Source of the DNA: Candidatus Nanoarchaeia archaeon
GTDB taxonomy: Archaea; Nanobdellota; Nanobdellia; Jingweiarchaeales; Jingweiarchaeaceae
NCBI GenBank assembly: GCA_038874075.1
Contig: JAVZDD010000002.1
Location: 4,605 to 68,604 of the forward strand
Direction of reading: 5' to 3'
DNA length: 64,000 bases
Part shown: piece after piece, positions 24,251 to 53,539 of the stretch
Layout of the letters: each line of letters opens with the position of its first letter
Position numbering within the stretch: position 1 is the stretch's first letter
Program-made: the position numbers and the translations under genes
The notes under the pieces: model-generated
The model's input: only the letters and a program-made list of their open reading frames with translations
Databases searched by the model: none
What the model was told of the DNA's origin: nothing

Positions 24251-25048
24251 ATGAAAATAAAAATATTGGAAGAGAATAATGAAAGATTGAAGTTTATTAT
24301 CGATGGACTCAATATCGAGCTTTTAAATTCATTAAGAAGGATATGTATGTCGGAAGTTCCTGTGATGGCAATAAAAGAGGTTGAATTTAGAAAAAATTCG
24401 AGTGCTTTGTATGACGAAATAATTGCACATCGGCTTGGTTTGATTCCATTGAAAACAGATCTAAAAAGTTATAATTTTGTTAGTGAATGTTCGTGTAAAG
24501 GGAAGACATGTGCAAAGTGTTCAGTTAAACTTTCATTAAAAGAGGTTGGTCCAAAAACAGTTTATGCCAGTGATATGAAATCAACTGATCCTGAAATAAA
24601 ACCAGTTTTTCCAAAGATGCCAATTGTTAAACTTTTGGAAGGACAGGAACTTGAATTCACAGCAATCGCAATTCTTGGAAGGGGAATTGAACACGCTAAG
24701 TTTTCACCTTGTCTTGCCACATATCGCTACTATCCTAAAATTGAAATAGATTCGAAGGCTTGCAATCAGTGTAAAAAATGTGTTGATGCTTGTCCCAAGG
24801 GCATTCTAAGCATTTCTGGCAAAGAAATTGTAATAAACGAAAAAACACTATTGGATTGTGACCTTTGTAGAGCTTGTGAAGATGCTTGCAAACCTAAGGC
24901 AATTAAGCTGATAGATAATCCAAACAAAGTAATATTCGAAATTGAAAGCTGGGGTCAATTAAAGCCAAAAGAGATATTTATAAATGCGATAAGGATAATG
25001 GAAGAGAAACTCAAAGAATTTTCAAGCGCTATTAAAGAAAAGGCTTAA
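24251..25048 (+). CDS. rpoD: DNA-directed RNA polymerase subunit D (Rpo3) with 4Fe-4S motifs
   Basis: Conserved RpoD N-terminus (ELLNSLRRICMSEVPVMAI), ferredoxin-like Cys clusters CNQCKKCVDACP and CDLCRACEDAC. Confidence 0.85.
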   Translation: MKIKILEENNERLKFIIDGLNIELLNSLRRICMSEVPVMAIKEVEFRKNSSALYDEIIAHRLGLIPLKTDLKSYNFVSECSCKGKTCAKCSVKLSLKEVGPKTVYASDMKSTDPEIKPVFPKMPIVKLLEGQELEFTAIAILGRGIEHAKFSPCLATYRYYPKIEIDSKACNQCKKCVDACPKGILSISGKEIVINEKTLLDCDLCRACEDACKPKAIKLIDNPNKVIFEIESWGQLKPKEIFINAIRIMEEKLKEFSSAIKEKA

Positions 25049-25050
25049 TT

Positions 25051-25173
25051 GCGGGGGTAGCGAAGCTAGGTCCAACGCGCAGGACTTAAGTTTAATTACT
25101 TAAGTGATGAGGTCACAATGATATGAAATCCTGTGGCTTAGTGCCCGCGTGGGTTCAAATCCCACCCCCCGCA
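25051..25173 (+). tRNA. tRNA-Leu (anticodon TAA) with about 37-nt intron
   Basis: Acceptor GCGGGGG/CCCCCGC, discriminator A, long variable arm, T-arm GTGGG-TTCAAAT-CCCAC; anticodon stem CAGGA...TCCTG interrupted by about 37 nt (25091-25127 if at canonical 37/38 site). Confidence 0.65.
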
Positions 25174-27889: not shown

Positions 27890-28204
27890 TTATTTTCTCT
27901 TCTTAATCTCGATCAGTTGCTTTTCAAATCTCTTCATTATTTCTCTCTTTCTTCTTTCTCTTTCATTTATCACTTCTTTTTTTCCTATCATATAACCAAT
28001 CACTAGTAAGAATATACCAATGAAGATAAAAGGAATAAATGAAATCGCAAAGAAAATAGCTACCTGGAAAGTATTTATCATTGGGTAACGTGTCATAAGA
28101 AACATTATTAAAAATAAGATGATTACTATGGGCATAAATATGATGAAAACTCCTATTCCTTTGAGAATGTCAGAAATTGCCTCAATAGATATCTCATCCA
28201 GCAT
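27890..28204 (-). CDS. Small membrane protein
   Basis: 104 aa, two hydrophobic helices and basic C-terminus. Confidence 0.4.
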   Translation of the reverse strand: MLDEISIEAISDILKGIGVFIIFMPIVIILFLIMFLMTRYPMINTFQVAIFFAISFIPFIFIGIFLLVIGYMIGKKEVINERERRKREIMKRFEKQLIEIKKRK

Positions 28205-28235
28205 AAGTAAATAATAATTTATAAAAATTTAAATC

Positions 28236-28324
28236 TGCCTGGGGTGGGATTTGAACCCACGATTGCAGCGTATCTTAGCAAAGCTCATGAGCGCTGCGTT
28301 CTAGCCAGACTAAACTACCCAGGC
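28236..28324 (-). tRNA. tRNA-Met/Ile2 (anticodon CAT) with about 14-nt intron
   Basis: Reverse complement: acceptor GCCTGGG/CCCAGGC, anticodon stem CAGCG...CGCTG with loop CTCATG + 14-nt insert, T-arm GTGGG-TTCAAAT-CCCAC, discriminator A. Track ORF 28244..28459(+) is spurious. Confidence 0.65.
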
Positions 28325-28325
28325 A

Positions 28326-28808
28326 TTAAAGTTTGTATCCAATCTTTCTTAAAAAAACCTTCCTATCTTTTATCTCTTCCTCTCCTTCAATACCCTTGCT
28401 CTTCATACCATCCACAACACCAAGAATTCCCCTTCCTTGCTCTGTCTCAGCGATTATAATTTGTAATGGGTTCGCAGTTGCAGCAATTATATTACAAACC
28501 TCAGGTACTTCTTTTATTCTATTTAATACGTTTATTGGGTATCCATTTTTTAAGAAAATGATGAAACAATGTCCACATCCGATCTCCAGCGCTTTTTCTG
28601 CAGCTAATTTTCTAAGTTGTTCATCATTGCCACTATGTCTTACAAGGCAAGGACCGCTTGATTCACAGAAACCGATACCAAATTTTATGATGGGAGATGA
28701 ATTCACGATTGCTTCATGTAAATCCTCAACTGTTTTAATAAAATGACTCTGTCCAAGTATCAAATTACATCCTTCAGGTACTTCTATCTTAACAATTTTG
28801 ATTTCCAT
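28326..28808 (-). CDS. Conserved hypothetical protein
   Basis: 160 aa ORF ending 1 nt before the tRNA 5' end on the same strand. Confidence 0.45.
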
Positions 28809-50987: not shown

Positions 50988-52142
50988 TTATATCTCTTGT
51001 ATTTCGGCCTTATCAATTGCATCCTTCATTAATTTCTTTATCTTTATTCTCCTCTCAAATTCTTTTACGATTTCAATTCTTGCCTGCGCTGTTGGATGTT
51101 TTGGCGTGAACAACGTACAACAATCTTCCTGCGGTTGTACTGAGATTTCGTATGTTCCAATCTTTTTAGCGATTTTTATTATTTCTAATTTGTCCATACC
51201 AATCAAGGGCCTCAGTATTGGTATTTGCGTCACTTCTTCTATCACAGCGATGTTATCTAGTGTTTGGGATGATACTTGGGCTAGACTTTCCCCAGTGATC
51301 AATGCCTTCGCACCCTCTTTTCTTGCTATTTCTTCGCAAATCCTTAGCATAAACCTACGATAGAAAATTATCCTATATTTCGTGGGTATCATCGCTTTTA
51401 TTGTAAGTTGAATATTGGCAAATGGGATTAAATATAGTTTTATTTTATCTTGATATTCGCGAAGCACTTGGAGCAATTTCTTCGTTTTTTCAATGCTCTT
51501 CTTTGATACTAGTGGAAAACTGTGAAAATGTACAAATATCACATTACACCCTCTTTTCATCGCGAGCAATGAGGCGATGGGTGAATCAATGCCTCCAGAA
51601 ATTAAGGAAATGACTTTTCCAGAAACGCCAACGGGTAAACCACCTAGTCCTTTTATCTTTTTGAAATAAATATAAGTGTCATTTTCTCTCACTTCGACAA
51701 AAATTCTTTTATCTGGATTCGCCAAATCTACTTTTCTTTTTATCACGCTACCAATCTCGCGTGCCAATTCCTGGCTTGAGTAATTGTGTTTACCAACTCT
51801 CTTCACTTCAACTGCAAATTTTTCATCCTTTCCCACTATTTTGTTGTAATTCTGTTTAAAAAATTCAAGTATCTCTCTCTTTTCCGAAGTTTCCAAGTGT
51901 AGGCATGGTGAAAATGAAACGATGCCAAAGACTTTTTTTAAGATTTTGCAAACTTTTGCAATTTTCTTTGTTTTAATAAAAATTCTTCCTCTTTTTTGAT
52001 AGATGCTAAAATCAATCCCTGTCTTGATAATTCTTGATTTTATGTTTTCGATTAATCTTCTTTCAAAAAGTTGCATAACTGGCTCTGATTTGAGAAATAT
52101 TTCCCCGTATCTTACGAGTATCTCATTATATTCCATTTTCAT
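50988..52142 (-). CDS. thiI: tRNA 4-thiouridine synthase / sulfurtransferase ThiI
   Basis: PP-loop SGGIDS within ISLISGGIDSPIAS, N-terminal THUMP-like region, 384 aa. Confidence 0.8.
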   Translation of the reverse strand: MKMEYNEILVRYGEIFLKSEPVMQLFERRLIENIKSRIIKTGIDFSIYQKRGRIFIKTKKIAKVCKILKKVFGIVSFSPCLHLETSEKREILEFFKQNYNKIVGKDEKFAVEVKRVGKHNYSSQELAREIGSVIKRKVDLANPDKRIFVEVRENDTYIYFKKIKGLGGLPVGVSGKVISLISGGIDSPIASLLAMKRGCNVIFVHFHSFPLVSKKSIEKTKKLLQVLREYQDKIKLYLIPFANIQLTIKAMIPTKYRIIFYRRFMLRICEEIARKEGAKALITGESLAQVSSQTLDNIAVIEEVTQIPILRPLIGMDKLEIIKIAKKIGTYEISVQPQEDCCTLFTPKHPTAQARIEIVKEFERRIKIKKLMKDAIDKAEIQEI

Positions 52143-52546
52143 TGAATTAAATACTCATCTAACTTTTTGAATGCTTCTTCTAAATTTTTATATGTTATTA
52201 AAATTATGTTTTTATTTCCTTCAATCATCGCGGATAACTTTTTGCGCTTTCGCGTATTGAACAAACAAATTATTTTCTTCTCCATTTCTTCGGCCTTTGC
52301 AATTTCATAGCCTACACCTAAACTTGGAAAGGTAACTTCTGCGACTACGATATCCGCTTCTCTCAACCACTTTATGTCCCTTTCATAGATTCTTTTACTT
52401 TCCAATTTCTCTCCTTTGCATGAAAGTCTATTACAAATGTGTTCAGTCAAAACTACTCCAAATTTTTTGAGATGTTCAATTATTTTGGCGTATGTCTTTC
52501 TTCCTCTTCTTCCACCCCTAATCGAACCAGCAAAATATATTTTCAT
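52139..52546 (-). CDS. 2'-deoxynucleoside 5'-phosphate N-hydrolase (DNPH1/Rcl)-like protein
   Basis: IYFAGSIRGGR and DIVVAEVTFPSLGVGYEIAKA motifs; true ATG at 52544-52546, since the 27-codon track extension overlaps the tRNA. Confidence 0.6.
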   Translation of the reverse strand: MKIYFAGSIRGGRRGRKTYAKIIEHLKKFGVVLTEHICNRLSCKGEKLESKRIYERDIKWLREADIVVAEVTFPSLGVGYEIAKAEEMEKKIICLFNTRKRKKLSAMIEGNKNIILITYKNLEEAFKKLDEYLIQ

Positions 52547-52549
52547 AAA

Positions 52550-52633
52550 TGCAGGGGCTGGGATTCGAACCCAGGAAGGCACTAAGCCACTAGGTCCTAA
52601 GCCTAGCTCTTTAGACCGCTCAGACACCCCTGC
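52550..52633 (-). tRNA. tRNA-Leu (anticodon TAG)
   Basis: Reverse complement: acceptor GCAGGGG/CCCCTGC, anticodon arm CTAGG-CTTAGGA-CCTAG, long variable arm, T-arm CTGGG-TTCGAAT-CCCAG, discriminator A. Confidence 0.8.
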
Positions 52634-52696
52634 AATTTAACAAATAATTGTTTTGTTTAATAAATTTTCCCCAAATCTGCTGCCTAATATATAAGT

Positions 52697-53539
52697 ATGG
52701 GGTTAAGTGGAAGATGTAAGTGTGGAAGCTCAAACTTTCAATACGACTTAAAAAGAGCAGAAAAATTTTGCACCAATTGTGGTTTAATAATAGAAGATAA
52801 TTTATTTTCAGAATTTGAGATAAAGAATAATGGGAGTATGAAAAGTAGAGAGATCAAGCCAAGATTTCCGAATGTTTTGAGAACACCGAGAGAAAGAGTA
52901 ATGAAAAACGCAAGAGATGAGCTCTGGTATCTTTGTGATGTTCTCCAAATAAAAAGTCAACAAATTAAAAATGAAATTTTGAAGCTTTATATGAAGCTCT
53001 ATGAAATTGATTTTACTGAACGAGTGAGCAGGGAATGTATAATTGGTGCATTGATTTATCTTATTTGTTGCAGGGAGAAGCACAATTATCTCACACTATT
53101 TGACATCAGCAAGTTTACAAATCGCTCGCCAGAAGAAATCTGGGAAATGGTCAATATGATATGTGATGAGCTTGAAATTAAATTTATTCCTCCTGATCCC
53201 GAGAATGGAATAATAAAATTTGGGATAGAACTTTTTATGGAACCGTATGAAATTACATTAGCAATGCAAATTATGGAAGAAGCTAGATTAAATGGAATAA
53301 TAGAAGAGTATGCAGATGTGCTTGATGTGATAACAAGCCTTTATTTATCATCTCTCATATGCGCTAAGATAAAGAATAAGAACGTCATAAAAATTGATGA
53401 CATCCTGAAACAATTCTGTTGGATTGATAAAAATGACCTTATAAAAAATATTACAGTCTGGAAAAGGTATATTAGTCCAGAAAAAATTATGAAGTGGAAA
53501 TTAATCAAAGAAATAAAAAATTATAGATTTAAAAACTGA
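52697..53539 (+). CDS. Transcription initiation factor IIB (TFB)-family protein
   Basis: TFIIB-type zinc ribbon CKCGSSNFQYDLKRAEKFCTNCGLIIEDN followed by about 250 aa consistent in length with two cyclin folds. Confidence 0.55.
   Translation: MGLSGRCKCGSSNFQYDLKRAEKFCTNCGLIIEDNLFSEFEIKNNGSMKSREIKPRFPNVLRTPRERVMKNARDELWYLCDVLQIKSQQIKNEILKLYMKLYEIDFTERVSRECIIGALIYLICCREKHNYLTLFDISKFTNRSPEEIWEMVNMICDELEIKFIPPDPENGIIKFGIELFMEPYEITLAMQIMEEARLNGIIEEYADVLDVITSLYLSSLICAKIKNKNVIKIDDILKQFCWIDKNDLIKNITVWKRYISPEKIMKWKLIKEIKNYRFKN

Follow-up and report, generated by a model that had tools for sequence, protein, structure and literature searches.

A tRNA-Leu gene abutting a DNPH1-like gene in a nanoarchaeon: a predicted tRNA–mRNA co-transcript with a three-nucleotide leader

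In the genome of an uncultured Candidatus Nanoarchaeia archaeon, the gene for tRNA-Leu(UAG) ends 3 nt before the start codon of a gene for a DNPH1-like protein, of the 2'-deoxynucleoside 5'-phosphate N-hydrolase family, which in turn overlaps the start codon of thiI. The most economical reading of this locus is a tRNA–mRNA co-transcript, from which tRNA processing would leave an mRNA with a leader of only 3 nt. In fact, we consider it probable that a single promoter, that of the tRNA, is read through into the DNPH1-like gene and thiI, and that cleavage after the discriminator A73 makes the 5' end of the message. All coordinates below refer to the window, that is the whole stretch of 64,000 nucleotides that we analysed (contig JAVZDD010000002.1, assembly GCA_038874075.1).

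Results

The Rfam model RF00005 places tRNA-Leu(UAG) at 52550..52633 on the minus strand, with a full-length match (model positions 1-71 of 71) scoring 58.5 bits (gathering score 29). The molecule is a class II tRNA with a long variable arm (a 13-nt variable-region insertion), a 7-bp acceptor stem (GCAGGGG/CCCCTGC), U8 and the discriminator A73 at position 52550; CCA is not encoded, as is the case for all six tRNAs of the window. ARAGORN also calls Leu(tag), at 52634..52549, one nucleotide off the Rfam boundary at each end, since pairing of T52634 with A52550 could add an eighth base pair. These boundaries were dropped in favour of the Rfam register, which keeps U8, allows no gap between T-stem and acceptor stem and leaves A73 as the discriminator. 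Codons CTA and CTG occur at ~16 per 1000 codons in the window's ORFs, and therefore this tRNA is needed.

The discriminator is followed by the spacer TTT (52547..52549, minus strand) and directly by the ATG of the DNPH1-like gene (52546..52544). An earlier note on this DNA had put the tRNA 3' end at 52550, 3 nt before an ATG at 52546, and all of these coordinates hold, both in the Rfam match and on reading the sequence. The junction is not an assembly artefact, since it is base-for-base identical in GCA_025920685.1 and GCA_025920645.1, which makes three assemblies in all. Among 41 tRNAs in the window and ~590 kb of fetched loci, no same-strand ORF starts less than 13 nt from a tRNA besides the one that follows tRNA-Leu(UAG). 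Other tRNA genes lie 1-2 nt after stop codons (25048/25051 and 28326/28324).

The DNPH1-like gene (52139..52546, minus strand) encodes a protein of 135 aa. The motifs YFAGSIRGG and SLGVGYEIAKA, from which the protein had been described, are present, and its proposed place in the DNPH1/Rcl family is borne out: the match to PF05014 reaches 53.5 bits, above the gathering cut-off of 28.8 (E = 3e-14), and 12 of its 12 PDB matches are DNPH1/Rcl (E = 5e-32 to 1e-28), with no nucleoside 2'-deoxyribosyltransferases among them. The best solved structures are those of human and rat DNPH1 (E = 5e-32), and identity to the human protein is 51% over 110 aa. In this alignment Y4, E35, H36, I53, D57, S75, E81 and S105 fall on human Y24, E55, H56, I76, D80, S98, E104 and S128. 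The catalytic triad of human DNPH1 is Tyr24, Asp80 and Glu104 (PMC10603095), and so Y4, D57 and E81 reproduce it. The features for 5'-phosphate binding are found as well, namely GSIRGG at residues 7-12 together with S75 and S105 (Ser98 and Ser128 in human), and the helical element Glu55-His56 is kept as E35 and H36. Thus the triad, the helical element, the GSIRGG loop and both phosphate-binding serines are common to this protein and to human and rat DNPH1 (Rcl), the hmdUMP/dNMP N-hydrolase (PDB 9da1, 8os9, 4p5e, 2khz; PMC10603095). The archaeal protein differs in being shorter, without the N- and C-terminal extensions, and in its shielding-loop region; in addition, human C26 is replaced by Ala. 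Judged by alignment, it is a clear DNPH1/Rcl homologue that retains all catalytic and phosphate-binding residues, and at 51% identity to proteins of solved structure its fold, the Rossmann-like one of a family of homodimers that hydrolyse the N-glycosidic bond of dNMP or hmdUMP, can safely be inferred. The gene has the same G+C content as the genome (32.6% and 34.2%, no difference), and we reject a recent foreign origin on this ground.

The distance between tRNA and coding sequence depends on the start codon, and the earlier note had named a true start further downstream as the case in which its proposal would fail. This is ruled out by the catalytic Tyr, which is residue 4 and would be lost with any later start, and by the starts of the homologues. 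In fact, the first codons after 52546 hold no ATG, GTG or TTG, homologues begin MKIYFAGSIRGG or MRIYFAGS in alignments that span 99–100% of the query, and an NCBI MAG has the identical protein annotated with the same length of 135 aa. The sole upstream in-frame start, GTG at 52627, was rejected as well; it falls inside the tRNA.

The third gene, thiI (50988..52142, minus strand), encodes a tRNA 4-thiouridine(8) synthase of 384 aa, which scores 379 bits against the TIGR00342 equivalog cut-off of 264.5 and has the full ThiI architecture of ferredoxin-like, THUMP and PP-loop domains (PF22025 ThiI_fer, PF02926 THUMP, PF02568 ThiI). The TGA of the DNPH1-like gene (52141..52139) overlaps the thiI ATG (52142..52140) in an ATGA (52139..52142, minus strand), the stop/start overlap that had been described before, and this suggests translational coupling of thiI to the DNPH1-like gene.

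To locate promoters, we used a BRE/TATA position weight matrix learnt with a motif sampler from the 48 promoter-proximal ORFs of the window. Half of these ORFs, 24/48, have the motif, AAAnnTTTAWAT, with its start 33-37 nt before the ATG, where ~6 would be expected by chance, and for this reason leaderless mRNAs appear to be the norm in this genome; short leaders occur too, given that ~10/48 have the motif at -44..-49. A BRE/TATA-like element, AAATTTATTAAA, preceded by GGGG (52656..52667, minus strand; 9.6 bits on the window matrix), starts 34 nt upstream of the tRNA-Leu 5' end, the same position that the motif takes relative to the ATG in leaderless genes (empirical P = 0.002 for such a match at -33..-37). 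The same register recurs in all six window tRNAs, each with its best in-register match at -34..-37 and with T(-1)/G(+1).

Nothing of this kind precedes the DNPH1-like gene. Over the 60 nt before its ATG the motif scores -6.6 bits at best, the lowest value of all 74 window ORFs, the motif that an ordinary leaderless gene would have 33-37 nt before its start is absent (-6.6 to -32.6 bits at -45..-20), and over the whole 87 nt upstream, a conserved tRNA body of 58% G+C, the best score stays below -6 bits. A separate promoter between tRNA and coding sequence, which would have undone the earlier proposal, is therefore not seen in a scan that covers TATA-type promoters only. There is also no Shine-Dalgarno-like sequence before the ATG (CCCCTGCATTT); several genes within operons of the window do have GGTGA-type motifs.

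The arrangement is not conserved. The closest DNPH1 homologue (locus L001, 71% identity) is followed by a NUDIX gene. A TATA-like box, AGATTTATTAAT, precedes its MRIYFAGS start by ~35 nt, a position that in the window is taken up by the tRNA body. A scan for DNPH1 relatives, in a contig collection that includes neither the source genome nor close relatives of it, returned 80 loci with no identity higher than 57%; a metagenome scan for thiI relatives gave two distant loci (48% and 38% identity). A conserved tRNA/DNPH1 pairing was rejected, as the tRNAs nearest to DNPH1 homologues lie 59 nt (L021) and 199 nt (L017) away. Likewise, thiI lies within ~3 kb of a DNPH1-family gene at 0/82 loci and a DNPH1-like gene is found at 0/12 loci with close thiI relatives. 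We thus reject the functional link between a nucleotide N-hydrolase and tRNA modification that had been read into this adjacency, which on these comparisons is specific to this lineage and has no functional weight. Relatives with a same-strand tRNA-Leu(GAG) upstream of thiI have a spacer of 56-87 nt, with a T7-T8 run and a TATA-like box, and in the window locus this spacer is gone. The arrangement was seen in only one species-level lineage, and so selection for it cannot be shown.

The tRNA-Leu gene is followed by the T-rich TTTATGAAAATATATTTTGC, with runs of T3 and T4 only, the T4 (52532..52535, minus strand) lying inside codons 4-5 (TAT TTT) of the DNPH1-like gene. Together with the TTT spacer, this run is the only T-rich stretch after the tRNA that might work as a weak terminator of the archaeal type, and the two runs could cause partial termination or even end most transcripts. 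If the latter, the DNPH1-like gene would be weakly expressed by accidental read-through, thiI would be transcribed mainly from a promoter towards the 3' end of the DNPH1-like coding sequence, and the tight junction would be a tolerated by-product of deletion, with which the lack of conservation agrees. A possible internal promoter-like motif of uncertain status, AAAAATTTAGAA (52178..52189, minus strand), does lie 47 nt upstream of the thiI ATG, with a score of 7.3 bits, and a second match of 7.4 bits lies at -65, so that thiI may be independent of the tRNA promoter. However, both matches fall outside the leaderless position (-33..-37) and could be chance in A+T-rich coding sequence, and the ATGA overlap points instead to coupling. 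Moreover, T5 runs occur within ~20 nt after three other window tRNAs, whereas the longest run after tRNA-Leu(UAG) is T4. Finally, the DNPH1-like ORF is intact, with all catalytic residues and a genome-like G+C content, and is identical in three assemblies; therefore it appears to be maintained and hence expressed. On balance we regard a junction that serves mostly as a terminator as unlikely.

If, as we favour, transcription does continue from the tRNA into the DNPH1-like gene, the message could still be translated without being cut. The tRNA would then be a structured 84-nt 5' UTR, the uncut precursor being translated by internal initiation without a Shine-Dalgarno sequence, and processed molecules would yield the tRNA and a decaying 3' fragment. 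There is a precedent in Thermococcus kodakarensis, where a tRNA-Lys is co-transcribed within the 159-nt 5' UTR of the TK0306 mRNA (Jäger et al. 2014, PMC4247193), and the ~10/48 ORFs with a more distant motif indicate that short leaders are used here. The AUG also sits in an unpaired A/U-rich stretch just past the acceptor stem: UUUAUGAAAAUAUAU stays single-stranded in the minimum-energy fold of the precursor and in its centroid fold alike. The folding did not reproduce the full cloverleaf (z-score -0.25), and we used it solely for this region. Against internal initiation stand the missing Shine-Dalgarno-like sequence, a stable helix 3 nt from the AUG that would hinder 30S loading on uncut RNA, the normally fast and efficient maturation of tRNAs and the apparent dominance of leaderless initiation in this genome, and we consider translation of the uncut precursor improbable. 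A primary leaderless mRNA made at the ATG independently of the tRNA, from a cryptic promoter within the tRNA or by means of a non-TATA initiator, is very improbable, for although archaeal transcriptomes are reported to contain internal start sites at which no TATA box is recognised (T. kodakarensis, with 644 internal start sites, is an example; PMC4247193), the stretch before this ATG is a G+C-rich, conserved tRNA body with the poorest motif score of all window ORFs.

Discussion

To explain this arrangement we propose that the promoter ~30 nt before the tRNA-Leu(UAG) gene yields one transcript, which would start at or next to the tRNA +1 and continue into the DNPH1-like gene and then thiI. The tRNA 3' end would be made by an endonucleolytic cut after A73, presumably by tRNase Z; such a cut is required because CCA is not encoded. 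In fact, tRNAs without an encoded CCA are the class that tRNase Z processes and the CCA-adding enzyme completes. The ORFs of the 64-kb window include no tRNase Z candidate (a metallo-beta-lactamase with HxHxDH), and we assume its presence in the genome. The same cut would also create the 5' end of the mRNA, predicted at the TTT spacer as 5'-P-UUUAUG…, and the 3-nt leader would be effectively leaderless, which fits the apparently dominant initiation mode in this genome. thiI would then be translated by coupling through the ATGA overlap, and the T3 and T4 runs may stop some transcripts, leaving the tRNA in excess over the mRNA. In archaea, an mRNA with a 5'-monophosphate may be unstable or poorly translated. 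What the sequence shows is the anatomy of the locus, where its promoter lies, the lack of a second one, the identities of the genes and the want of conservation; the transcription start, the co-transcript, the tRNase Z cleavage and translation of the cleaved product are predictions.

This proposal retains part of what had been suggested before, a tRNA–mRNA co-transcript whose processing yields a leaderless message. The absence of a promoter-like sequence before the ATG, the strong motif before the tRNA and the apparent leaderless default all speak for it, but the message would not be strictly leaderless, since a cut after A73 leaves UUU. We envision that the arrangement is the product of lineage-specific genome compaction and not a conserved functional module.

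Operons of tRNA and protein genes also occur in bacteria. In E. coli thrU-tyrU-glyT-thrT-tufB, for example, the tRNAs share a transcript with the protein gene that follows them and are freed from it by processing, but, unlike here, the mRNA has a leader with a Shine-Dalgarno sequence and its initiation is non-leaderless. Likewise, the T. kodakarensis tRNA-Lys and TK0306 share one promoter and primary transcript, as predicted for the window, but this mRNA keeps a conventional leader after removal of the tRNA, whereas that of the window would keep 3 nt (PMC4247193).

A further parallel is found in Nanoarchaeum equitans, where an RNase Z cut in a dicistronic tRNA-Val/C/D box sRNA8 precursor is proposed to make the 5' end of the sRNA (Randau 2012, PMC3491384), and where promoter box and tRNA start are separated by a fixed ~26 nt (PMC3491384). 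Both cases concern compact DPANN genomes with a fixed promoter-box distance and a promoterless gene immediately after the tRNA; they differ in that the N. equitans product is a small guide RNA with ends defined by RNA-seq, whereas that of the window is an mRNA predicted from sequence.

The principle is an established one in mitochondria. In the account of tRNA punctuation by Ojala, Montoya & Attardi (1981), as cited in PMC10941002, excision of tRNAs by RNase Z or RNase P defines mRNA ends, and the mRNAs, with leaders of 0-3 nt, are translated without Shine-Dalgarno sequences. As in that account, the tRNA of the window directly abuts a coding sequence on what is predicted to be one polycistronic transcript. 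Set against the cited description, however, mitochondrial punctuation is organelle-wide and has dedicated enzymes, whereas the window offers a single junction on an archaeal chromosome, with predicted processing, and most genes of this archaeon are served by a promoter of their own at the distance that suits leaderless transcription. It is conceivable, though less likely than not, that this archaeon uses a mitochondria-like punctuation, with leaderless tRNAs transcribed from +1 as in N. equitans, tRNA genes butted to coding sequences and a tRNase Z cleavage obligatory for the near-leaderless DNPH1–thiI mRNA. If true, this would tie the expression of a tRNA-modifying enzyme to the transcription and processing of a tRNA.

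In the literature searched, we found no report of a prokaryotic mRNA that owes its translatable 5' end to tRNA 3' processing, which is not proof of absence. The principle itself is already known from mitochondria and from an archaeal small RNA, the window being a species-specific case, and the locus says nothing new on the function of DNPH1 or ThiI. If confirmed, it would be a clean instance from nature in which a cellular archaeal genome uses tRNA 3' processing to make the translatable 5' end of an mRNA. It would also mean that extreme genome compaction can delete a promoter without losing expression where leaderless initiation is the default, and it would provide a simple test substrate for the archaeal translation of 5'-monophosphate mRNAs with 3-nt leaders.

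A tRNA gene three nucleotides from a DNPH1-like start codon

On the minus strand, a tRNA-Leu(UAG) gene (52633..52550; full-length Rfam match, 58.5 bits vs a gathering score of 29) is separated by a TTT spacer (52549-52547) from the ATG at 52546 of a 135-aa DNPH1-like ORF (52546..52139), the TGA of which overlaps the ATG of thiI in an ATGA (52142..52139). The coordinates in the earlier note are thus correct: tRNA, 3-nt gap, ATG and stop/start overlap were all re-found. The tRNA has a 7-bp acceptor stem (GCAGGGG/CCCCTGC), U8, the anticodon UAG and a long variable arm; its discriminator is A73, at 52550, and the gene does not encode CCA. ARAGORN draws wider boundaries (52634..52549) because T52634 (-1) could pair with A52550 (A73) as a possible eighth acceptor pair; we set this register aside, the Rfam register being canonical. 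For several tRNAs of the window, the ARAGORN boundaries exceed those of Rfam by 1 nt per end. The junction is the same in two further assemblies and is therefore not an assembly artefact.

We regard the start codon at 52546 as secure on sequence grounds because an NCBI MAG labelled 'Candidatus Parvarchaeota archaeon' has an identical protein annotated at the same length of 135 aa, homologues start MKIYFAGSIRGG, the catalytic tyrosine is residue 4, and the sole in-frame start further upstream falls within the tRNA. A true start further downstream, which would have spoken against the short junction, was not borne out. The proposed DNPH1/Rcl affiliation was upheld by an HMM search (PF05014, 53.5 bits); the solved structures matched are DNPH1/Rcl only (E = 5e-32 to 1e-28), and identity to human DNPH1 is 51% over 110 aligned residues. 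In fact, every functional residue of the human enzyme defined in PMC10603095 is kept in the alignment: the catalytic triad Y24/D80/E104 (here Y4/D57/E81), E55-H56 of the helical element (E35-H36), I29 and I76, which hold the base in plane (I9, I53), and the phosphate-binding S98 and S128 (S75, S105). By homology, then, the protein is a member of the DNPH1 family. Its gene has 32.6% G+C, matching the genome, and thus shows no obvious sign of recent import. Next downstream lies thiI (TIGR00342, 379 bits), with ferredoxin-like, THUMP and PP-loop domains.

Promoter motifs of mRNAs and tRNAs

The window is compact (34% G+C, ~88% coding). Its archaeal origin shows in a TFB-like gene, an Rpb3-type rpoD and intron-containing tRNAs, as well as in the labels of its closest ThiI relatives (below). 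To describe how its genes start, we took the 60 nt preceding each of 74 crude ORF calls; the 48 ORFs with an upstream spacer of at least 36 nt served to learn a 12-nt motif. This motif is a BRE/TATA element, AAAnnTTTAWAT, and begins at -33..-37 from the ATG in 24 of the 48 (chance would give ~6), as is expected if transcription starts at or beside the ATG; leaderless mRNAs thus look like the default in this genome. In a further ~10 ORFs the motif stands at -44..-49, pointing to short leaders, and GGTGA-type Shine-Dalgarno motifs precede several operon-internal genes.

The six tRNAs of the window (5' ends 19052, 25051, 28324, 31532, 37138 and 52633) share this geometry. In each, the best in-register BRE/TATA match begins 34-37 nt before the mature 5' end (empirical P 0.002-0.035), with T at -1 and G at +1, which suggests transcription from +1 without a 5' leader. 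The pattern resembles the 5'-leaderless tRNAs reported for Nanoarchaeum equitans, an organism without RNase P (PMC3491384, PMC10941002). Two tRNAs closely follow coding sequence. At 24251-25173 (+), an intron-containing tRNA-Leu(UAA) comes 2 nt behind the stop of rpoD (25048/25051), the gene that closes an S13-S4-S11-rpoD operon; at 28236-28808 (-), 1 nt separates the stop of an adenosine-specific kinase gene (PF04008) from an intron-containing tRNA with CAT in its anticodon region (28326/28324). The coding ends upstream hold only weak promoter-like matches (~4 bits). Either these tRNAs share a transcript with the mRNA, or their promoters are embedded in coding sequence.

At the tRNA-Leu(UAG), the motif copy AAATTTATTAAA (52667..52656, 9.6 bits, GGGG just before) begins at -34 from the mature 5' end (empirical P = 0.002 for position). 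A separate promoter between tRNA and coding sequence was sought with the motif and none was found, the best score being -6.6 bits; nor does any Shine-Dalgarno-like sequence precede the ATG (…CCCCTGCATTT directly before it). The upstream neighbour, a divergent TFB-like gene (52697..53539, +) with weak Zn-ribbon and TFIIB-repeat matches, lies on the opposite strand, so no other transcript enters from that side. This leaves the tRNA promoter, with read-through of the tRNA, as the predicted source of transcripts of the DNPH1-like gene. The two divergent genes have a 63-nt spacer in common (52634-52696). The best TATA-like match of the TFB-like gene, TAATATATAAGT, begins just 12 nt upstream of its ATG, in neither of the usual positions, and the gene is called 47 codons shorter in GCA_025920645.1 (233 vs 280 aa), so its true start or integrity is uncertain.

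Predicted processing and termination of the transcript

In tRNAs without an encoded CCA, tRNase Z cuts the precursor endonucleolytically behind the discriminator, and CCA is then added. CCA is encoded by none of the six window tRNAs, and their 3' ends are therefore expected to arise this way. We consider it probable that one promoter would yield a single tRNA-DNPH1-thiI transcript, that cleavage after A73 would release 5'-P-UUUAUG…, a near-leaderless mRNA with a 3-nt leader, and that thiI would be translated by coupling. In predicted folds of the precursor, UUUAUGAAAAUAUAU at the junction is unpaired.

It is unlikely that transcripts mostly terminate at T runs, with weak read-through and thiI served by an internal promoter. 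Motif matches of 7.3 and 7.4 bits do lie at -47 and -65 from the thiI ATG; the T runs after the tRNA are only a T3 (the spacer) and a T4 (codons 4-5), T5 runs follow three other window tRNAs, and relatives have T7-T8 runs. Termination here is probably leaky, and this could set the tRNA-to-mRNA ratio. At 28204-28236 (-), by contrast with the 3-nt junction, a 31-nt tRNA-to-ATG spacer contains TTTAAATTTTTATAAA, in which a T5 run and a TATA-like box are packed closely; the gene behind it can therefore be served by a leaderless promoter of its own. Translation of an uncut precursor, the tRNA serving as 5' UTR, has a parallel in tRNA-Lys/TK0306 of Thermococcus kodakarensis (PMC4247193) and is likewise unlikely. 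A cryptic promoter within the tRNA is very improbable: across the 60 nt that precede the DNPH1-like ATG, no site scores above -6.6 bits, the lowest such best value among all 74 ORFs.

Comparison with relatives

The tRNA-DNPH1-thiI arrangement is not conserved in the loci fetched from relatives. In 80 genomes and at the closest homologue, no DNPH1-family locus has a tRNA <59 nt upstream, and of the 41 tRNAs in the DNA compared, only the one at this locus has an ORF start on its strand within 13 nt. The earlier note had also linked the hydrolase to tRNA modification; this is unsupported, as thiI occurs within ~3 kb of 0/82 DNPH1-family loci and a DNPH1-like gene at 0/12 loci with close thiI relatives.

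The closest DNPH1 homologue (L001, 71% identity) stands alone, with a NUDIX hydrolase gene 36 nt downstream, a neighbour that fits a role in nucleotide-pool metabolism. A TATA-like box, AGATTTATTAAT, lies ~35 nt upstream of its MRIYFAGS start; in the window, the tRNA body occupies this position. The homologue is annotated as 151 aa (682-1137). The conserved MRIYFAGS start and the placement of the box suggest that this call is over-extended by 13 codons, the real protein being ~138 aa.

The closest ThiI relatives (65-70% identity) are Aenigmatarchaeota wherever their source carries a label. Two of their loci (L089, L093) have a tRNA-Leu(GAG) on the thiI strand, 56-87 nt upstream, with a long T run and a TATA-like box in the spacer. 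In the window, the DNPH1-like gene occupies the expected site of this terminator-promoter spacer, and the arrangement looks derived. In others (L086/L087, L088, L092, L094) a tRNA-Ser GGA is divergent from thiI, ~53 nt away. A class II tRNA gene thus directly adjoins thiI in 6/8 distinct related loci, in two configurations, and the window holds a third. Inherited synteny may account for this adjacency, or else a tRNA-thiolating enzyme may have become associated with tRNA promoters repeatedly.

Precedents and significance

The predicted principle is common to mitochondrial tRNA punctuation, as cited in PMC10941002, and to the tRNA-Val/sRNA8 precursor of N. equitans, in which RNase Z is proposed to make the 5' end of the downstream RNA (PMC3491384). 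For archaea, a tRNA co-transcribed with an mRNA is on record in T. kodakarensis (PMC4247193). We found no report in the literature of a prokaryotic mRNA made near-leaderless by tRNA 3' cleavage, which does not prove that there is none. The locus is a further case, predicted, single-locus and lineage-specific, of a known principle; it would gain wider significance if RNA data showed that this genome uses tRNA junctions throughout to make mRNA 5' ends.
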